Below are positions 2,945-64,000 of a DNA stretch of 64,000 nucleotides, piece by piece. The notes under the pieces were generated by a model. That model did not search any database. It was not told the origin of the DNA and worked only from the letters and a program-made list of their open reading frames with translations. Numbering within the stretch: the stretch's first letter is position 1; every line of letters begins with the position of its first letter. The stretch is from a virus. Where the stretch lies: IMG/VR virus record IMGVR_UViG_3300045988_067569; one strand, given 5' to 3'. The position numbers and the translations under genes were made by a program.

Positions 2945-3374
2945 CTACTACATATTTTAAGATTTCATAACTTTCTTCCAGACCTGCCCTATCATCTAGG
3001 AGGATATTGTAATAAGGTTTCTTAGATTTAGAGAATATAGAACTACTAATGTTTGGAGCAGATAAAGTATTAGAAGTAATATTTGCTATTCCTAATCGCA
3101 TACAAATTGTCTGCTTTGCCATAATTTTATAATCATCTTCATCAGTGGTGAATAAAATCATTTCAAAACCTAGAAGTGAGCATTCTTTAAGTAGTTCTAT
3201 AACGCAACTATAATCTCCGCCAGTATTATGGTAATCGAAAATAGTATTATCAAAATCGAAAGCGACTATTAGCTTTCCGTATTTATGATACTCTTCTAAT
3301 AGTCGTTTCTTGCAAGCTTCTTTCCCAAAAGGATGATTAAAGTCCATGGTCAATTCTTTGTCTGATTTCTTCAA
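2910..3374 (-). CDS. HAD-superfamily phosphatase-like protein
   Basis: DxDxT motif (FDFDNTIFD) near N-terminus. Confidence 0.5.
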   Translation of the reverse strand: MKKSDKELTMDFNHPFGKEACKKRLLEEYHKYGKLIVAFDFDNTIFDYHNTGGDYSCVIELLKECSLLGFEMILFTTDEDDYKIMAKQTICMRLGIANITSNTLSAPNISSSIFSKSKKPYYNILLDDRAGLEESYEILKYVVDEIKLNQQGNQ

Positions 3375-4887
3375 GAGAATATTCTTTCTTCAAGATACCA
3401 TCTTCAAAGACAGTCTCTAAGCATCCCTCTTTTTCCTCCTCGATTGAGACCTGGTCGGTAGCAGTATACTTCCCATCCAGACATTTATAGACAGCAATCA
3501 AACCTTTCAAAGAGTTCTTAGTACCATCATCAGTTTTAGGATGTTTGAAGATTTCTTTCAATTCGCCATTTACTACGCAAGCAGTAGCCTTAATAGCAAA
3601 CCCAAGACTATCTCTACTTGCATACTGATAGGAATATGAACCTACTCCCAGAACGAGATTACAAGCCGCCATATGAGCGTTTTCTAATCTCAAGTAGATT
3701 TGCTTTTGACGTTCCAGAGTAATAGAATCTCCATAAAGCAGACCAACCTTAGTGCTAGGATAACGGTAATCCTTTGAAGTAGTATTCCATCCGAAGATTT
3801 TACCAAGCATATAATATGCCCCATAATATTGACCTTCGGACACTTCAACATACTCTGCATCGTCGTTAAACGGAGCATAGCAGCAATAATACTTACCTTC
3901 TTTCATTCTGGTATTGAAGTGAGGATTAGTTCTCAACCCGCAGATTATATCTACTGGGTCTCCACTATCAGGACGGATTACTACTCTACCATCACGAGCC
4001 ATAATGTCTTTCTTCAGCTTGGGCAAGAAATTTTCAATTACATTCCAGAAATCCCAAGTATCAGATACAATAGAAACAAACCCAGAAGGATACAAATCAT
4101 TAATTAGACGTTTGAAAGTGCCCAGCTCATCTTCCTCCCCTCCAGCACACATTACAGAGTGTTCTGTTGCTGGAACTGTAGCAGCAATCAATTCCTCGTC
4201 TGAATTAGCTCCATAATATTCTTCCAAAGCAGCAATAGCTGGAATAGTTTCACTTCCCACAAAAGAAGTCATATGCGCCATACCAGATATAATTGCGGCT
4301 TCCATTCCCGCCATACCTCGCATTGAGAAATCATGACAACAAAAACCAAGATTTACATCTGTTGGAAAACCAGTCTTGCAAGCATGACGATGTAGCTCTT
4401 TCTTATAAAGCCTAGCTCTAGTAGCAGATGTGCATGGCATCCACAAGGTACAGCTGATAATAGTCTCTAAGTAGTTAGTTAACCAAAAGAACTCGGGTAG
4501 AGTATTTGTAATGGTCATCATGGGAACCCGAATAGGGCACACAGAACCTTCAGGAAGAGCCTTTATGCGAATTGGTAGATACCCAAGGTCATATAAAGCT
4601 TCAATATGTCTGTACCCAACGGATTCAATACCAACAAAGTTGTTTACTCTACGATAGAACATCTCCACAGCTTCCTTCTTTGGTAGATTAAAGAAGTTTT
4701 TCTCAAACTGTTTAATGAGATATTCTTTGATTAGGTATTGAATACCAAATACTACTGAACCTTCGGTTGCTTCTGGGAAGTATTTATTACTTCTAGGAGT
4801 CCAGTTACTATAAACTTGTTCAGTACCTTCGGGGTACATTCTGTGATGGCCCAACTTGTAACCATCTGTAGCATTAATTATTTCCAT
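3337..4887 (-). CDS. nicotinamide phosphoribosyltransferase family protein (NadV/Namat-like)
   Basis: 516 aa; N-terminal ATDGYKLGHHRMYPEGTEQVYS matches the NAMPT signature ATDSYKVTHYKQYP. Confidence 0.8.
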   Translation of the reverse strand: MEIINATDGYKLGHHRMYPEGTEQVYSNWTPRSNKYFPEATEGSVVFGIQYLIKEYLIKQFEKNFFNLPKKEAVEMFYRRVNNFVGIESVGYRHIEALYDLGYLPIRIKALPEGSVCPIRVPMMTITNTLPEFFWLTNYLETIISCTLWMPCTSATRARLYKKELHRHACKTGFPTDVNLGFCCHDFSMRGMAGMEAAIISGMAHMTSFVGSETIPAIAALEEYYGANSDEELIAATVPATEHSVMCAGGEEDELGTFKRLINDLYPSGFVSIVSDTWDFWNVIENFLPKLKKDIMARDGRVVIRPDSGDPVDIICGLRTNPHFNTRMKEGKYYCCYAPFNDDAEYVEVSEGQYYGAYYMLGKIFGWNTTSKDYRYPSTKVGLLYGDSITLERQKQIYLRLENAHMAACNLVLGVGSYSYQYASRDSLGFAIKATACVVNGELKEIFKHPKTDDGTKNSLKGLIAVYKCLDGKYTATDQVSIEEEKEGCLETVFEDGILKKEYSLEEIRQRIDHGL

Positions 4888-22456: not shown

Positions 22457-23032
22457 CTAGCGAACACCTCCATTATAAGTTTTAGCATAACCATTGTCTA
22501 CTAACCAGTGTGCAGCATCGGCTATACTGTTCCAAGTCCTGATAAAATTATTATTTAAATCATACTGAGATATTGATACAGGTTGCTTGCAACTTCCCAA
22601 ATAAAATTTGTTCTTTGGTATATTGTTTATATTTATTACTTTAGAAACTGTATCAACAGAACATTGCATTTTGGCGGAAACTTCAATCATTGTCATTCCG
22701 CTAGTATATAAAGATATTATTTCTTTATAATCGAATAAGATAGCTCCATCGCCTCCCATAGTAGCATTATAGCCATTTGAGTATGTGTCTAGCTTATCTA
22801 TAAATTGAATTTCATAAGAAGCTAATTCCTCATCATCACATTCATACAGCTACTCAACTATAAAGTTCTCGATCCCATACTTGTTCATAGCATCATATAG
22901 CGGCCTCTTTTCACATCTTTCCTTCTTGCAATCATTACAATGTTCTTTAAATCTCTTAGTTACAGAATAAGTAGTTTTTCCAACATACTATTTTCCATTA
23001 ATTAAATTTGTAATACAATAAATATATCCCAT
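22457..23032 (-). CDS. GIY-YIG homing endonuclease, full length only if two in-frame TAG codons are read as sense
   Basis: MGYIYCITNLINGK-TAG-YVGKTT...RPLYDAMNKYGIENF...-TAG-...GYNATMGGDG; the downstream part is ORF 22457..22759. Confidence 0.65.
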
Positions 23033-23116
23033 GTTCTATTCTTATTTAAAATTAAACATATTAGTAAGATTAGCGTTATCCAACTCACACCACGTGGAGG
23101 TTCTTACTTGTGAGTC

Positions 23117-23341: not shown

Positions 23342-23977
23342 TTAAATAGGCTCTGGAAGATATTTCCAAATATAGCCATACTATGATTTGGTTTTATTCT
23401 TACAGCATCCTATAATATGACTCTATGCAGATTTATTGTCAGTAATTCCGTTATTAATTAACCATTCCTAAGCTTCTCTGGAACCAAAGAATACCTGTAT
23501 AAAATTACCTGCTAAGTCATACTAAGCAATTAACTTTGCGTTACTTTTTCTAATTTTTATATTATTTGCCTTCAAAACTTTGTAAATAGTGTCTTTACAG
23601 CACCCTATTTTTTCTTGTATCTAAGAACTAGTATATCCCAATCTAGCTAATTCTACAATTTCACTATGATTGTATAGAATAGTGCCATCTCCTCCTTTAG
23701 AGGCATTGTACCCATTAGAACCATAAGTTCCTAGCTCTTTTATCCAATAGATTTCTCTTTCAGATAATTCAGAGTTACTATCTACATATTCCAATTCCTC
23801 TATCATAAAGTTCTCAACACCATACTTATTCATGGCATCATATAAAGGTCTTTTGTTGCATCTTTCTTTCTAAAAGTCATAACAATGTTCCTTCCAGCGC
23901 TCTTCTATAGAAGTAGTAGTTTTTCCTACGTATCGCTTGCTATTAATTAAATTTGTAATGCAATAAATATATGCCAT
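23342..23977 (-). CDS. GIY-YIG homing endonuclease paralog requiring read-through of about six in-frame TAG codons
   Basis: MAYIYCITNLINSKRYVGKTT...RWKEHCYDF-TAG-KERCNKRPLYDAMNKYGVENF...; C-terminal half is homologous to the 22457-23032 paralog; ends TAA at 23342. Confidence 0.6.
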
Positions 23978-23997
23978 ATTTTTAAATTTAAAATTAG

Positions 23998-31004: not shown

Positions 31005-32978
31005 TTACTTCACTTCTTCAAACTCAGTTGTTTCAGCTTTCTTCTCCTCCAACTCTTTCTTGCCGAGAACACTTTTCAGTGTATCAGCGAAAGGTATAGA
31101 GCGAAGCAAGTCGAACGCAGGATTCAAGTTCTCAGCAGTTTTAGCCATGAAGTTACCAGCGGTATTCTCGTTACCATAAACAGTAACCTGTCCAAGGTGA
31201 ACGTGTTCAAACATCTGAGCAGATGCTTCTGCAATACCTGTCAACTGGTCAACTGTCTTGTACTGAACCACCATTTCAGGAGTCAAGCCAGATTCAATCA
31301 TCTTCTCAACTGCCAAGGCTGGAGCCATTTCGATAGCTTGAACCTTATCAGCTTCTGCCATCAATGATGCTCTCTTACCTTCAGCTTCAGCAAGCAATTT
31401 CTTGCGAGTACCTTCTGCCTCTGCTTCTAACTGCAGTTTAGTAGCGTCAGCTTTCGCTTCTGCTTCTTTCAAAATCTTTGCAGCTTCTGCTTCTGCTTCC
31501 AATACCGCTTTGGCTTTAATTGCTTCTGCTTCAATAGTTACTCTCTCTTTTTGTTTCTGAGCAGGAACAATCATTTCAGCTTGAAGTTTTGCTTCCTCTG
31601 CCTTAGCAGCAGCTTCGTTAACCTCAATCTGGCGTTCTTGTTCTGTTTTGGCTACAGCCATTCTTGCTTCTACTTTAGAAGTACCAGCTACCTTTTCTGC
31701 TTCAGCTTGTGCCTGTGCAGCTTCTCCTTTTGCCTTTGATACTTCAATAGTTGCTTTCTGCTCAGCTACTCCAGCTTGCTTGTCAGCTTCTGCAGCCTTA
31801 ATTCTCTTCTGAGACTCATACTCTGCAGTAGCAGCTTCTTGCTCATTAATTGCTTTCTGAGTGTCTGCTTCCTGCTTTTGCTTAGCTTGAGCAATACGAG
31901 TTTGCTTCAGAGCTTCAGCTTCAGCTTTCTTAGAATCTGCTTCTGCCTTAGCTTTAGCTACATTAGCTTCTGCTTCTGCGTCAGCAGCAGCTTTCTTAGA
32001 AGCAGCCTCTGAAGCGGATTTCGCTACATTAGCTATTCTCTGAGATTCAGCTTCAGCTTTAGCTGATTCTGCTTGAGTGTTTGCACGAGCAATACTAGCT
32101 TCTTGTTCCGCCTTCTGTTCAGCGATACCAGCTTGTTTGTTCTTTTCTGCTTCTGCCAAGCGAATAGCTTTCTCCTGATTAATCTCAGCAACCTTTACTT
32201 CCTGTTCTTGCTTAGTTTGAGCAACTGTAGTTTCTCTTTCCTTTTCAGCATCGGCTACGGCAATCTCACGCTGTTTGTTGGTTTCTGCAATCTGAATATC
32301 TCCTTTCTTCTTCTCTTCTGCAATGTCAGCCTGTGCCTGAGCAAGAGCTTTAGTTGCAGCTTTCTGACCAAGATTCTTGATATAGTTTGCATCGTCCGAG
32401 ATATCAGCGTTGTTAATATTGATAATACTGAAACCTACCTTGTTCAACTCAGTTTCAATATTCTCTTTTGCCTTGCCGATAAATTTGATTCTATCAGCAT
32501 TTATTTCCTCAATCGTCATTGTTGCCATCAAGCTTCTCACTTCACCAATGAGAATATCCTTGATTTGGTCTGAGATTTCAGAAGTTTTAGCTGTTAAGAA
32601 TCTGCTTGCAGCGTTTTGCATTAGTACTTGATCGGTTCCTATACCAGTAGTTAATGTCACAGGAATCCTAACCTTAATCATTTGGCTGGATACTCCCTCT
32701 ACCATTACCTGAATCTGAATAGGTTTCAAGGACATTTTAGCCCAGTCTTGAATGACAGGCATTACGAATGTACCTCCGCCGTGGATGATTTTAGACGGCA
32801 GTATAACTTCCTCCGTTTTACCAGTCTTCTCGTTAACTACCTTCTTCTTTCCTGCCTTACCAAATACTACCAGGATTTCATCACTAGCACACTTACGATA
32901 CCGAGACAAAAGTCCGATAAAAGTTACAACTACTAAGAGTACAATAACACCCGCTACAATAAGAGTTTCTGTTGTCAT
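31005..32978 (-). CDS. flotillin-like SPFH-domain protein with long Ala/Glu/Lys-rich coiled-coil repeat region
   Basis: N-terminal TM helix, SPFH/flotillin-like core, about 350 aa of AEAEAK-type repeats. Confidence 0.65.
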   Translation of the reverse strand: MTTETLIVAGVIVLLVVVTFIGLLSRYRKCASDEILVVFGKAGKKKVVNEKTGKTEEVILPSKIIHGGGTFVMPVIQDWAKMSLKPIQIQVMVEGVSSQMIKVRIPVTLTTGIGTDQVLMQNAASRFLTAKTSEISDQIKDILIGEVRSLMATMTIEEINADRIKFIGKAKENIETELNKVGFSIININNADISDDANYIKNLGQKAATKALAQAQADIAEEKKKGDIQIAETNKQREIAVADAEKERETTVAQTKQEQEVKVAEINQEKAIRLAEAEKNKQAGIAEQKAEQEASIARANTQAESAKAEAESQRIANVAKSASEAASKKAAADAEAEANVAKAKAEADSKKAEAEALKQTRIAQAKQKQEADTQKAINEQEAATAEYESQKRIKAAEADKQAGVAEQKATIEVSKAKGEAAQAQAEAEKVAGTSKVEARMAVAKTEQERQIEVNEAAAKAEEAKLQAEMIVPAQKQKERVTIEAEAIKAKAVLEAEAEAAKILKEAEAKADATKLQLEAEAEGTRKKLLAEAEGKRASLMAEADKVQAIEMAPALAVEKMIESGLTPEMVVQYKTVDQLTGIAEASAQMFEHVHLGQVTVYGNENTAGNFMAKTAENLNPAFDLLRSIPFADTLKSVLGKKELEEKKAETTEFEEVK

Positions 32979-32993
32979 CTTTAAAAATTCTTT

Positions 32994-33521
32994 TTAGTTA
33001 AAATAATACTTTCCATTCTCAAATTTTGAAATTCTCACTTTGTCCCCGTTTTTATACGTCTTATGCTCTTCTTCAGCATAAGCTGACAATTCTTGAAGCA
33101 TTCCATTTATCTCAACTAAGATAACAGAACTACCACCAGAAATATCATTAGGGATAGTGATTGTTCCAATTCTCCCAACTAAGGCTTCACCCTTTTCAGG
33201 AATAACTTGATGTTGGAGTTTTAAACAAAGTTTATATAAGTAGTAAAGTATAACCACAAAAAGAATACCGCATATTAATGCGATTAAATAATCGTACCAT
33301 TCTATAGAATGAGAAACGGAATGCTTAATACAAAGCCATCCACTTGCTCCCATTACAAAATGTACTAGTCCTTTAAAAGAGACAATATCACTCACATCCA
33401 TGTCCAATTCTCCATCTAAATCTACATCTAAGTCAGTGTCGCCACCAAACCAAGAGAGTATGAACTGAACAATAAAAATGCCATACGAAATGGCTGCTAA
33501 GAGATAATAAGTTTCGCTCAT
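32994..33521 (-). CDS. NfeD-like membrane protein (typical operon partner of SPFH/flotillin proteins)
   Basis: N-terminal TM helices plus a C-terminal soluble domain; sits immediately downstream of the flotillin-like gene. Confidence 0.55.
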   Translation of the reverse strand: MSETYYLLAAISYGIFIVQFILSWFGGDTDLDVDLDGELDMDVSDIVSFKGLVHFVMGASGWLCIKHSVSHSIEWYDYLIALICGILFVVILYYLYKLCLKLQHQVIPEKGEALVGRIGTITIPNDISGGSSVILVEINGMLQELSAYAEEEHKTYKNGDKVRISKFENGKYYFN

Positions 33522-34287: not shown

Positions 34288-34506
34288 AGTTTCATTAACG
34301 GCTACTCCAATCTCCTTACCGAGATTTGCATACTCAGAAACTTCCTTGATTTCACCCTTTATAGCCTTCTCTGTTGTTATCTTCTCAATTTGAGTTCTAG
34401 TCTCATTGGGTAACTTATCATAATCTTCCTGAGATATAGTTATCTGAGAAAATGCTTGCTACGCTCATCCAGAGCATAGCAAGCATAATTACAAGGAACT
34501 TTTTCA

Positions 34507-35067
34507 TTAGTCAAGCCATTCAAATTCTTCACCCTTGAAATGTCTTGCAAAACAAGCATCGAACACTAGCTTTCCAAACTGGGTTGATACGTATTTGGCA
34601 ATCTCTTCAGATTTGCACGCAAGCATCCCGACAAGGGAATAGGCAAAGCCGACGCCAGAGTCAGAATCGAAAGAGCCGAGACCCGCACCGCCGCCAGTAG
34701 CCGCGGGGCCGCCCACCAACGCGAATTTCTCGCCCTGATAACGGAAGTGACCAATGACTTCTGCATCCTTCGGAACTGATTTCATTCTAAAGAAGCGAAC
34801 CCAGGGATACCATATAGTACCAGTTAACAGATTGAACTTGTGACCTTCATTTAGCGCATCCAAGACTGTCTGCAACTTAGCTAGAGAATTTACAGATCTA
34901 TTGTAGTAAATAGTATCTCTAGTAACACACCCTAGATAGTTTACAGCATCCTCATAGGTTCTTATCCGTCCCATAATGTTTTCTGGAACGATTTCAACAT
35001 TGCCAGTTTCGGCATTATAGATGGGTTTATAACCATCTGGACATTCAATTTCAATTGTCTTTTTCAT
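34507..35067 (-). CDS. remote DGR target protein (C-terminal variable region)
   Basis: the C-terminal FALVGGPAATGGGAGLGSFDSDSGVGFAYSLVG region is encoded by a GC-rich segment that matches the template repeat except at template adenines. Confidence 0.6.
   Translation of the reverse strand: MKKTIEIECPDGYKPIYNAETGNVEIVPENIMGRIRTYEDAVNYLGCVTRDTIYYNRSVNSLAKLQTVLDALNEGHKFNLLTGTIWYPWVRFFRMKSVPKDAEVIGHFRYQGEKFALVGGPAATGGGAGLGSFDSDSGVGFAYSLVGMLACKSEEIAKYVSTQFGKLVFDACFARHFKGEEFEWLD
34627..34722 (-). repeat. DGR variable repeat VR2 (remote, opposite strand to the template repeat)
   Basis: about 95-bp match to the template repeat at 62391-62490; every mismatch sits at a template adenine. Confidence 0.7.
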
Positions 35068-35177: not shown

Positions 35178-35642
35178 TTATTCGAATAGCGGCAGCAACT
35201 TCTTTCCTAGTATCTTCACCGCTTTCTGTACATCAGCTACAGTTCTAAAATAAACAACACCTGGATATTTTACGTTTTGATGCATAACGACGTACACTCC
35301 TTTTATATCAGTTTCCGTCTTTCCAGATAGAGAAGAACCCCTTCCAAGAAAATAGCCAGTATTACCTTCTGTTTTGATCCATCCTTTATTTAGATAGTTA
35401 GCAACTATTTGTAAACTAGCTAGAGAACTGAGTTGTTCTGTCATGCTTGGAGGACATACTAATGTATTCCAAAAACCATAATCTTCTTCAGACTCTACTA
35501 TCTCTTTAAAGGAAGGAATTAGCATTTCCTCACTAAATGCAGTAAGAGCTAATTTCTTCAAGTCTTCATTACCGCTTTCATACCATTCGCGTGCCTGCTC
35601 TAAAGTTACCTCAAGATAGGCTTTTGTCTTAATTCTATTCAT
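35178..35642 (-). CDS. hypothetical protein
   Basis: ORF track. Confidence 0.4.
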   Translation of the reverse strand: MNRIKTKAYLEVTLEQAREWYESGNEDLKKLALTAFSEEMLIPSFKEIVESEEDYGFWNTLVCPPSMTEQLSSLASLQIVANYLNKGWIKTEGNTGYFLGRGSSLSGKTETDIKGVYVVMHQNVKYPGVVYFRTVADVQKAVKILGKKLLPLFE

Positions 35643-60496: not shown

Positions 60497-62314
60497 ATGG
60501 CAGCAATCAAATCTATAAAGGTTGGGGAAACCACATACGATTTAAAAGCTACTTACGATGGTGCTGGAAATGTTATAGATACGACATATGCCAAGGCTAA
60601 TGCAATTCCAACTAAAACTTCTTAGTTACAGAATGATAGTGGATATTTAACTGAGCATTAGGATATTAGTGAATTAGCTACTAAGGGTGAGCTTGAAGGC
60701 AAAGTAGATAAGGAGTTAGGAAAGGGACTTTCTGAAGCCAATTATACTGAAACTGAGAAGGAAAAGTTAAGTACTATAGCTAATAATGCTAATAATTATG
60801 TACATCCAACTACTTCTGGAAATAAACATATTCCATCTGGAGGAGCATCTGGATAGATGCTAGTTTTCTCAGCAGATGGTACTGCTGAATGGGCAGATTC
60901 AAGTTCTAAGCTAGAAGAGCAATTTACAGCGCTAAATGAGGCTTGGGAAGAATTGTAGAAGGCACAACAAAAGCTTGATAAGTAGATTACTGAGCTAAAT
61001 AGTAATATGGATTTATATTCCTATGGAGTAGAATGGGATGTTACAGTAGCATCTCCGGAACTTACTAGAATAGGTAATCCTTTGCTGCATAAATCTCTTC
61101 CTATTCAATCAGCGTATAGAGGTTGTGTAGCAAACAATGATGTAGTAAATTACTATCTGTTTCCAGATGACTGGTCTTATAAAGAAGACGGAGAAACTCC
61201 ATCTGTCTTAGATGGAACTGATGGAACAGTAAGAGTTAATACTCCTAAATTTTATGGAAAATCTGGCAGCGATGGAAACAAAAGATGGGTTAGAACTTCT
61301 ACTGTCAAAATTGATGATTCATGGGTAGAAATTCCTGAACTATTAATAGATGCATACAGAAGTACAGTTGATACCACAGTCTCCGCAACTCCAAAAGCTG
61401 TATCAGTAGTTAATACTACTACTGCATTTAGAGGTGGAGGAAATAGAGCTAACTACGATGATTATCTAACTACAGAATTAGAAACTAAGGATATATTCAG
61501 AAGTGATTTAGGAAAGCCTAGAACTAATATTTCTAGAGCTACTATGAGAACATATGCAACAAATGCTGGTTCAGAATTGCTATGCTATGAATATTACAAA
61601 TGGATATTCTACTGGAATTATGTCATTGAATATGCTAATTTTAATTCTTAGGCTGCCTATAATGCAGAGTTAACTGCGGATGGATATCATCAAGGGGGTT
61701 TGGGACCTGGAGTTACAGATTGGGCTAACGCAGCTACAAGTTGGTCAGGATATAATGCAACATATCCACTTACGCCTTGTGGTTACTGCAATGAATTTGG
61801 TAACTTCACTGGAGTAAAAGATTTAGTTATTCCAGAATGTACAGTTCAAGATGGCACAAATACAGTAGCAACTCATACATTTAAAGTACCTCGCTGGAGA
61901 GGGTTCGATAATCCGTTTGGAGACATTTGGACTAACCTGGACGGAGTAGTTATAGTGAGAGCAGCTGCTAATGAGATTAGCACTGTCTATACAACTACTA
62001 ACGTATCGGAATTTACCGACGTAGTTGGAGAGAAAACCGTTGCAGGATACGAAGTAGCATCTGATGGTTATATTAAGGCATTTGACTTAGGTGAAACCGC
62101 TGAAATAATTCCATCCGCTGTTGGAGGAAGTGCTACTACTTATATTTGCGATTACCATTACTGCAACGCAAGCAGCACAGCGCTTCGCACGCTGCTGGTG
62201 GGCGGCAGCGCGCCTGATGGCGGCGGTGCGGGTCTCGGCTGTTTCAATTCTGCCTTTGACGTCGGCGGTGCCGTTTCCGTTGTCGGGTTCAGGACTCTGA
62301 ATAGAGTATCTTAA
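60497..62314 (+). CDS. tail fiber protein, DGR target (variable region at its C-terminus)
   Basis: N-terminal fiber-like sequence HIPSGGASG-TAG-MLVFSADGTAEWADS; contains ORFs 61007..61651 and 61700..62314 joined by a TAG; C-terminus LLVGGSAPDGGGAGLGCFNSAFDVGGAVSVVGFR lies in the variable repeat. Confidence 0.65.
62189..62288 (+). repeat. DGR variable repeat VR1 (GC-rich island)
   Basis: about 100 bp at the 3' end of the target gene; matches the template repeat except at template adenines. Confidence 0.8.
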
Positions 62315-62390: not shown

Positions 62391-62490
62391 GTACTGCTGG
62401 TGGGCAGCAACGCGAATAATGGCAGCAATGCAGGTCTCAGCTATTTCAATTCTAACAATGACGTCAGCAATGCCAATTCCAATGTCGAGT
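62391..62490 (+). repeat. DGR template repeat (TR), A-rich with many AAT/AAC/AGC codon-like triplets
   Basis: about 23 mismatches to VR1 by hand alignment; each falls where TR has A and VR1 has G, C or T. Confidence 0.8.
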
Positions 62491-62632
62491 TATTATATAT
62501 TTAGAAACATTTTATTATTTTTTTTTAGTTTGCTAAGTAATATCCTTGCCTCTAGGCAAAAGATAACGTAGTGTTGAATGAAGGGTGTTAGTAGGTTAAT
62601 TCTCGAACGCTTCCGATGAAATATATAAAAAA

Positions 62633-63906
62633 TTGAAACGTGTAGGATATTTGCACGAGAAAGTATACGCTGAAGATAACATCGAACTAGCTGACGATAA
62701 AGCTAGAAGAAATAAGTCTATTAGATGTGGAATCAAGCAGCATGATAAGAATAGATTAAAAGAAAATAAGGAATTATCCGATAAGTTAAGGGATTTGATT
62801 TATCAAACCTCTGAATATAGTACCTTTATAATATACGAACCTAAAGAAAGATTAATCTTTAGACTTCCATACTATCCAGATAGAATAACTCACCATGCTA
62901 TAATGAATATTATGGAGCCTATTTGGACTAGTATATTTATAGACCAAACATATTCCTCTATACGAAATAGAGGTATTCATAAAGTAGAGTATGATTTGTT
63001 TAAGGTGTTATAGAAACATCCAGAAGAAACAAAGTATTGCTTGAAAATGGATATAAAAAAATTCTATCCTTCTATAACTCACGACATTTTATACGAAATG
63101 TTATAGAGAAAGATAAAGGATAAAAAACTATTAAAACTGTTGAAAGAAATAATTTATTCAGCGAAGGGAGTTCCTATTGGAAATTATCTATCACAATTCT
63201 TTGCAAATTTATATCTGACATATTTTGACCACTGGGTAAAAGAGGAGTTAAAATGTAAGTACTACTTTCGATATGCTGACGATATTGTGATTCTTGGTAA
63301 TGACAAGAATTATTTGAGAAATGTATTAGTATCTATAAAACTATATTTGAAACAGGTTCTTAACCTAGAGTTGAAGCCTAATTATCAAATATTCCCTGTA
63401 GAAAGCAGAGGTATTGATTTCGTAGGCTATAAATTCTATCATACTCATGTTCTACTGAGAAAATCTATAAAAATGAGGATGTTTAGGCTTATAAATCTAT
63501 ATAAATAGAATAAGATTGATAAAGATGAATTGAATAGAAGAATGAGGTCTTATTTTGGATGGATGAAATTTTGCAACTCTAAGAACTTGCTGAGAAAGGT
63601 AGAGGAGTTAACTGGATTGAAATTCTCTAACTGGAATGGAAAAGAAGTTAACATATCTAAGTTTTATAATAAATATATTCACATTGTAGAGGTTGTTGAT
63701 TATGACAATCATTTTCGAGTGCATTTCATGTATAACAATAAACCCTACTATTTTAAAAGTAAGAATAGGAGATTACACTATTCTTTGCTTAGATACAAAT
63801 TTCCTATAAATTTTAAAATAACACCTTATGTTAGAGCCGAATAGAATACAAATGGACGTTTATCCTTAGACAATCCAAAAACTTGGGAACGGTACTTATT
63901 ACTATA
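62633..63906 (+). CDS. DGR reverse transcriptase (TAG-interrupted reading frame)
   Basis: RT motifs RLPYYPDRITHHAI, LKMDIKKFYPSI, GVPIGNYLSQFFANLYL and YADDIVILG (motif C), then GIDFVGYKF; about four in-frame TAG codons; TAA near 63904. Confidence 0.8.
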
Positions 63907-64000
63907 ACTATGATATAAAAGAAATTAGTGTTGAAGTACTTGATTTAGACAATACCATAAAAGAAAAAACTTACTATAGTTTTATCTAGGTATTATTAAA

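Follow-up and report, generated by a model that had tools for sequence, protein, structure and literature searches.

In the DGR mechanism, as it is known from Bordetella phage BPP-1 and from later work, a template repeat (TR) is transcribed, the reverse transcriptase (RT) makes an adenine-mutagenised cDNA from it, and this cDNA replaces a variable repeat (VR) by homing. The BPP-1 DGR (Mtd, Avd, TR, bRT) serves a single adjacent target and comes with an Avd gene, a GC-rich IMH and a downstream hairpin; among DGRs in general, neither the downstream hairpin or cruciform nor avd is universal. In the DGR variable proteins that have a C-type-lectin fold (Mtd, TvpA, TaqVP, AvpA), the VR usually stands at the extreme C-terminus.

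A dual-target arrangement with a distal, opposite-strand, non-structural target is already published for other Bacteroides phages. Benler et al. 2021 (PMC8008677) describe for the 'Quimbyviridae' a DGR whose second target is distal to the structural module and on the opposite strand, with methyltransferases, a nuclease and a tRNA ligase as its neighbours; the role that they propose for it is in phage-host conflict. A Nature paper of 2025 (PMC12629997) reports a distal second VR in four prophage species, near counter-defence genes, and prophage DGRs with non-adjacent targets within 50 kb are in the list of Wu et al. 2018. The survey of Roux et al. 2021 was, by its authors' own account, unable to detect remote targets.

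The DNA that we consider here (the window, by which we mean the whole stretch of 64,000 nt that was analysed) carries one DGR cassette and, far from it, a second repeat of the VR type. The features needed for the argument are these:

34507..35067, minus strand: gene that hosts VR2, an ORF without in-frame stop encoding a 186-aa protein of the phrog_11581 family
34627..34718, minus strand: VR2, the second variable repeat (92-nt core), with adenine-only mismatches to TR
43832..43904, plus strand: suppressor tRNA with anticodon CTA (found by ARAGORN)
60497..62314, plus strand: tail-fibre (tail protein) gene, the cassette-adjacent DGR target (phrog_5302, 1.4e-83), with six in-frame TAG codons
62196..62287, plus strand: VR1, the variable repeat at the 3' end of the tail-fibre gene, with adenine-only mismatches to TR
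62398..62489, plus strand: core of the template repeat TR, with 28 adenines
62633..63907, plus strand: DGR reverse transcriptase (Pfam RVT_1 9e-20, phrog_1423 1e-113)

The cassette runs in the order tail-fibre gene, whose last codons are VR1, then TR, then RT. VR2 lies 27,680 nt from TR on the opposite strand, which agrees with the 27.7 kb given in an earlier note on this DNA. Our reading is that VR2 is a functional second target of the single DGR at 62.2-63.9 kb, and we put the probability of this at about 0.9.

As in the Quimbyviridae (PMC8008677), one RT and one TR serve two VRs, of which one is at the C-terminus of a tail-module protein and the other lies far off on the opposite strand, in the company of non-structural genes, a tRNA ligase gene among them; the variation is adenine-specific in both (in the Quimbyviridae, across near-identical genomes). 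The two systems differ in that the Quimbyviridae are temperate phages of roughly 75 kb, whereas the window phage is crAss-like, of roughly 185 kb, with about 26 tRNAs and amber recoding, and in that the RT and fibre of the window are TAG-recoded while its remote target is not. The second Quimbyviridae target has methyltransferases beside it, and none was found among the ten neighbouring ORFs scanned near VR2, where most neighbours are unannotated. Benler et al. call both of their targets C-type-lectin-containing, whereas the predicted model of the window target gave no lectin match. The two-target cassettes with tentaclins (PMC10743442) likewise have one TR, two unrelated target proteins and VRs that differ within one phage; there, however, both targets are in the cassette, contain clear C-type lectin domains and are presumed receptor binders. 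With BPP-1 the window shares the adenine-specific TR-to-VR transfer, a TR rich in AAY and a C-terminal VR in the tail-fibre protein, but the Avd gene, the GC-rich IMH and the downstream hairpin of BPP-1 were not found in it (Avd having been searched for within the window cassette). No plausible coding ORF for avd lies between the end of the target gene at 62314 and the RT start at 62633, except a frame that reads through TR itself; the window ends 93 nt past the RT.

The phage is a large, amber-recoded crAss-like gut phage of roughly 185 kb. Its terminase shares 26-28% identity with classified Crassvirales and 43% with an unclassified human-gut phage, and the genomes of its relatives measure about 180-190 kb. 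In the late genes (the plus-strand block from about 48 kb, including terminase and portal) there are 124 in-frame TAGs in 4785 codons, and there are none in the large minus-strand genes between 1 and 43 kb. The RT has three in-frame TAG codons up to 63844, and a fourth if translation continues to the TAA at 63907, and its translation with TAG read through presents the GxxxSQ motif as GNYLSQ. Under the standard genetic code the RT appears broken into three ORFs. The VR2 gene has no TAG, against an expectation of 4.8 at the late-gene rate (P 0.008); with the lower rate of the fibre and RT genes, P is 0.16. Thus the CTA suppressor tRNA is needed for translating the RT and the tail fibre, and not for the VR2 gene.

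The window encodes 26 tRNAs, among them suppressors with the anticodons CTA and TTA; these suppressor tRNAs are located at 40577-40647 (-) and 43832-43904 (+). The CTA anticodon suits the many TAGs that stand in frame in the late genes; the TTA (ochre) one is puzzling, since the VR2 gene, the tail-fibre gene and other genes still end in TAA. In the tRNA-rich region there is a 183-nt direct repeat of 76% identity (22853-23035 and 23798-23980), and several tRNAs of that region are unusually long, at 81-90 nt (e.g., Asn, Cys, Met, Tyr). A nicotinamide phosphoribosyltransferase, an NAD-salvage enzyme, is encoded at 3337-4887 (-) (phrog_448, 1e-182).

Judged by description, in the accessible portion of the 'Echekviridae' proposal (PMC12386605), the zeta crAss-like DGRs resemble the window in genome size, tRNA load, suppressor tRNAs and amber codons in the RT, as well as in the GxxxSQ motif of the RT, in having (for most members) no Avd, and in a tail-fibre target that carries a C-terminal lectin domain. 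That portion of the paper describes only tail-fibre targets, with extra TR-VR pairs in two phages, and the phrase 'second target' is absent from its text. Among GenBank phages, megablast with the VR2 region and the cassette returned only tRNA fragments or no match, and tblastn with the VR2 protein returned no match.

An unguided repeat search finds the VR2 and VR1 cores as a 92-nt inverted repeat (34627-34718 and 62196-62287, 84% identity) and VR1 with TR as a direct repeat (62192-62289 and 62394-62491), the homology of TR to VR1 reaching beyond the core to 62394-62491. When the three repeats are aligned over the 92-nt core, which requires no gap, TR differs from VR1 at 23 positions and from VR2 at 24, and every one of these differences (23/23 and 24/24) falls at a TR adenine, with hypergeometric P values of 3.5e-17 and 2.5e-18, respectively. 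Chance similarity is rejected as the source of the VR2/TR match. The codon register of VR2 is that of VR1, and in the frame of either target 27 of the 28 TR core adenines occupy the first or second codon position. It was the earlier note that drew attention to a TR-like segment with adenine-only mismatches in the minus-strand gene 34507..35067, and the alignment bears this out, down to the codon pairs it quoted as examples (AAC/CCC, AAT/GCT, AAT/ACT and GAC/GGC). Mismatches between VR2 and TR at non-adenine positions number zero in the core; four are located outside it, at its two edges. The homology was therefore rightly recognised in the segment then drawn as 34627-34722, but its extent shrinks to the core 34627-34718, as non-A mismatches account for three of the four additional 5' bases. 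The two VRs had also been described as G+C islands in a genome of about 33% G+C; islands they are, each core having 67.4% GC and the two being the only 92-nt windows of at least 60% GC in the 64 kb, and the figure for the window as a whole is 35.7%.

The 3' ends read as had been claimed, ...TGTCGGG in both VRs and ...TGTCGAG in TR, and the sole 3' element common to VR1 and VR2 is the repeat end ...TCCNNTGTCGGG. Past the repeat end, VR1 and VR2 have no homology beyond GTCGGG, and neither a GC-rich 14-nt element nor a conserved IMH was found there. Hairpins downstream of the VRs fold no better than shuffles (z -1.55 and -0.33), and the short palindromes that follow VR1 and VR2 are broken in relatives without compensation, so that there is no conserved hairpin. 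Among the genomes examined, the final GGG is present in 39/39 VRs, against GAG in all TRs. The last TR adenine is thus G in every VR, so it behaves as a fixed difference between donor and recipient and not as a mutagenised site.

To examine the variation of VR2 we use three collections of relatives. A search of 5.8 billion proteins gave 832 homologues of the VR2 protein, the best 120 of which are 85-95% identical to it. When 121 homologous proteins are aligned, the codons that have a TR adenine at position 1 or 2 show a mean column entropy of 2.26 bits, compared with 0.15 bits at the non-A codons of the VR and 0.18 bits elsewhere in the protein. The AAY codons reach 3.0-3.5 bits with 12-16 different residues, and the AGC, TAT and GAC codons show almost only the residues reachable by changing an A (G/S/C, S/Y/C/F and G/D/V, respectively). 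The residues preferred at the variable sites are Tyr, Asp, Asn, Ser and Gly. A first set of 38 loci on large phage contigs was found through the non-adenine skeleton of the repeat and is biased, since the search pattern fixed the non-A bases; the protein alignment and a further DNA sample are unbiased. This sample consists of 36 genes fetched by protein similarity plus that of the window, 37 in all, with 69-95% amino-acid identity, and the DNA entropies in it are the following:

VR2 positions opposite TR adenines: 1.38 bits (82% of these positions carry three or more nucleotides), 37 genes
VR2 non-adenine positions: 0.08 bits, 37 genes
Rest of the gene: 0.32 bits, 37 genes
VR2 non-adenine positions, third codon positions: 0.13 bits, 37 genes
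Rest of the gene, third codon positions: 0.54 bits, 37 genes

At its non-A positions VR2 is thus better conserved than the gene that contains it. The comparison at third codon positions (0.13 against 0.54 bits) indicates homogenisation from TR, and such low non-A variation is what repeated overwriting from a conserved template would be expected to produce.

Thirteen other contigs carry both loci, with TR and VR2 25.0-29.8 kb apart and on opposite strands in all of them; TR is conserved in the relatives and always stands about 200 nt downstream of VR1. Copies of VR2 are unique in 26 of 27 cases and copies of VR1 in 15 of 15. Identity at the hypervariable sites among genomes is 0.33 for VR2 and likewise for VR1, so an invariant VR2 beside a varying VR1, which would have spoken against the proposal of the earlier note, is not what the relatives present. 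Taking the differences between assembled genomes as the record of diversification, VR2 is in all probability an active DGR target.

These data also bear on two ways in which VR2 could resemble TR without being served by it at present. In the first, VR2 would be the relic of a past homing or duplication event whose diversification has ended; degenerate TR-VR pairs with extra non-A substitutions are indeed known in other zeta crAss-like phages, according to the accessible portion of PMC12386605. A relic, however, should not look like VR2, which has no non-A mismatch in its core, has near-uniformly unique copies that differ at A sites only, keeps its non-A sites better than the surrounding gene does and follows the divergence of TR in a sister lineage, as described below; we consider this explanation exceedingly improbable. 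In the second, the variation in VR2 would be copied from VR1 by homologous recombination or gene conversion, with no direct homing of TR cDNA, for which the 84% identity of VR1 and VR2 in the window genome would be enough. At the 21 hypervariable sites, however, VR1 and VR2 of the same genome are 0.30 identical and those of different genomes 0.32 (permutation P 0.81); the two repeats are no more alike within a genome than between genomes and thus have diversified independently. The high overall identity stems from the common non-A bases and from AGC-to-GGC positions that are near-fixed in both VRs, and gene conversion from VR1 is in our view very improbable.

The sister lineage is marked by a family member (P0130) that is only 46% identical to the window protein and whose equivalent segment is likewise hypervariable. 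The large phage contigs of this lineage carry together a diverged TR, a VR1 in the tail-fibre gene and a VR2 in the homologue of the family. Within the repeat, the TRs of the two lineages have 12 differences in which neither base is A, and at 12/12 of these both VR1 and VR2 match the TR of their own lineage. At the level of comparative sequence, this covariation is direct evidence of a flow from TR to the remote repeat that has been kept over considerable divergence. For two other family members the same comparison has no counterpart: P0133 has no relatives on viral contigs, its sole contig being 1.9 kb, and P0148 has no tblastn match among deposited phages.

Some further features of the relatives are recorded here as observations. 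The VR2 proteins of several of them (L055, L064, L066, L074, L077) are 179-187 aa long and not 186, and several of these length differences are small indels within the VR-encoded segment, which are not a product of adenine mutagenesis alone. In most relatives TR starts with TAGTAGGC, giving two extra adenines at silent positions, and in the window (62394-62405) and in L012 (147-238) it starts with the VR-like TGGTGGGC. The TRs of L008 (1213-1304) and L016 keep only 22 and 26 of the 28 core adenines, with VR-like bases at the rest. Such VR-like TR bases could come from VR-to-TR conversion or from assembly chimerism.

Together these observations show that one TR supplies both the fibre-tip VR1 that adjoins it and VR2, 27.7 kb off on the opposite strand. 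Both VRs are continually overwritten, with TR adenines replaced by any base and the other TR bases copied faithfully. By analogy with known DGRs, homing of the cDNA into a VR would be directed by the 3' end of that VR, and the GAG of TR against the GGG of the VRs would tell the donor from the recipients. Since the RT has in-frame TAGs, it can be made only when the amber-suppressor tRNA is available, and mutagenesis is therefore expected late in infection, on replicated genomes. Against this picture stand the lack of a conserved hairpin or a GC-rich IMH after either VR and of an Avd gene in the window cassette.

The next question is what kind of protein is being diversified. The 186-aa VR2 protein matches phrog_11581 (2e-15), a family of unassigned function. 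Pfam gives no match for it and is likewise uninformative for 43 family members, and neither a sequence profile search of the PDB nor the domain fusions in ten longer members inform on the family. By an exhaustive HMMER search the family comprises 225 representative clusters at 50% identity, mostly of 175-220 aa, and across these the segment LVGGxAxxGxxAGLGxFxS..VG...G.L.C..EIA is conserved. VR2 encodes residues 117-147; the VR is thus not at the extreme C-terminus of the protein, and 39 residues remain after it. The AlphaFold (AF2) model has a pLDDT of 90.5 and finds no fold match in the PDB, C-type lectins included. As far as this predicted model goes, the protein is not recognisably a C-type lectin, and the lectin fold that the earlier note had suggested for it is not recovered. 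The same note had called the two targets unrelated, and they do align over the VR alone (32 residues by BLASTP, 40 columns by hhalign). Inspected directly, the sequence has no hydrophobic segment at its N-terminus.

Homologues of this protein exist outside the crAss-like phages. The matches of a distant family member are hypothetical proteins of two Bacteroides phages, BI-TP1 and LoVEphage, together with a protein of phage Versailles, and the LoVEphage records give tblastn matches nearly equal to those of BI-TP1 (accession: PQ571265.1). In BI-TP1 and in Versailles, the family gene is located among recombination, replication, methyltransferase, radical-SAM and tRNA-ligase genes, not structural ones. 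BI-TP1 is a cultured phage of 71.6 kb, in which the RT adjoins a Mtd_N tail protein and TR on the strand opposite to that of gp84, the family member. Over 112 nt, the BI-TP1 TR (6648-6537, -) and gp84 (62600-62711, +) differ at 14 positions, 14/14 of them at TR adenines (P 2e-11); this pattern shows gp84 to be a remote DGR target too. That gp84 is a homologue of the window protein follows from BLASTP (8e-11 over residues 35-170) and hhalign (96.5%), the homology lying outside the VR as well. The two proteins are nonetheless only 30% identical, the TR sequence and the VR scaffold (LVLWGGPANHGAYCGL...) differ, and BI-TP1, unlike the window phage, is temperate and uses the standard code. The accessible portion of the BI-TP1 paper (PMC12694917) describes only tail-related DGR targets and leaves gp84 unmentioned. 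From these cases we infer that the family is a recurrent remote DGR target in unrelated Bacteroidota phages.

The VR2 gene is placed in a standard-code, minus-strand, tRNA-rich, non-structural block. A tRNA-ligase CPD-domain protein is encoded about 6 kb from it, and near it are also a Band_7 protein, an AAA ATPase and a weak radical-SAM match (below the cutoff of Pfam). The position, the strand and the absence of TAG codons would together make the product an early-region protein, as it had been labelled; the absence of TAG codons is a weak sign of a non-structural role if the low rate of the fibre and RT genes is applied (P 0.16).

Several details of this neighbourhood deserve mention. The Band_7 gene encodes a 657-aa SPFH/Band_7 protein with a long Ala/Glu/Lys-rich repeat region (31005-32978, -) and is accompanied by the gene of a membrane protein (32994-33521, -), the two being 1.5-3.5 kb from the VR2 gene; in BI-TP1 a Band-7 protein, gp76 (L102 3639-4430), is about 4.6 kb from gp84. 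Radical-SAM and tRNA-ligase genes also recur close to the VR2-family gene. Just upstream of the VR2 gene, across a tRNA-His, a 154-aa ORF (35178-35642, -) has its N-terminal half in common with some members of the VR2 family (pairwise BLASTP 7e-11 to P0217) and is without the VR-bearing C-terminal half. On the other side, a 29-aa hydrophobic ORF (MKKFLVIMLAMLWMSVASIFSDNYISGRL, 34418-34507, -) begins in a TAATG overlap with the stop of the VR2 gene, an overlap that suggests translational coupling. Promoter and terminator scans around the VR2 gene gave sites no more frequent than in shuffles.

Two roles can be considered for the protein. Tentatively, and at somewhat less than even odds, we favour a soluble, non-virion protein that acts within the infected cell, where its hypervariable patch would bind some variable molecule of the host or of a competitor, as part of phage-host conflict. 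Alternatively, VR2 is active and its product belongs to the virion as a second adhesin or receptor-binding protein, whose gene by chance lies apart from the structural block, so that two host-recognition surfaces are diversified. Tail or receptor-binding proteins make up almost all of the phage DGR targets characterised so far (PMC10743442, PMC12386605), the scaffold encoded by the VR is the same as in the fibre, and Tyr, Asp, Asn, Ser and Gly at the variable sites are typical of binding surfaces. A virion component would, however, be an odd occupant of the opposite strand in a tRNA-rich standard-code block, with no TAG where every late gene has several. The protein is also small, has no recognisable region for fibre attachment or trimerisation and no homology to the fibre outside the VR, and in three unrelated phage groups its homologue has replication, recombination or modification genes as neighbours. 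The Versailles homologue (WAK79127.1, L103 5974-6555), which lies between the NinB and replisome-organiser genes, carries the label 'tail protein', which would favour an adhesin; the label comes from an HHpred match and is probably a mis-annotation driven by the VR-like segment. We regard a second adhesin as unlikely, though worth keeping in mind.

Beyond the intracellular role that we favour for the window protein, a broader and more speculative proposal, which we hold to be rather unlikely at present, is that the phrog_11581-type family constitutes a DGR scaffold of a third kind, besides C-type lectin and Ig, common to unrelated Bacteroidota phages and serving as a programmable intracellular binder made before the virion genes are expressed. 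If this were true, the DGR would be evolving an antibody-like inhibitor or sensor of variable host-defence or competitor proteins, in parallel to the receptor-binding fibre.

The finding extends a second, non-structural DGR target from temperate Bacteroides phages of the Quimby/LoVE type to the large amber-recoded crAss-like lineage, for which the accessible literature had described the tail-fibre target alone. New here are the dependence of RT and fibre, but not of the remote target, on a suppressor tRNA; the homology of remote targets between unrelated Bacteroidota phages (the window protein and BI-TP1 gp84); the co-evolution of the dual-target architecture with its TR; and a target whose confident predicted model is not recognisably a C-type lectin. 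Surveys that look only in the vicinity of the RT (PMC8144416), as well as annotation with the standard code, miss such remote targets. What had been scattered observations become a defined protein family of about 225 clusters (50% identity), for which there are a confident structural model and, in BI-TP1 gp84, at least one cultured representative. With homologous remote targets and a cultured representative in hand, what else phages diversify, apart from their receptor-binding proteins, can therefore be approached by experiment.
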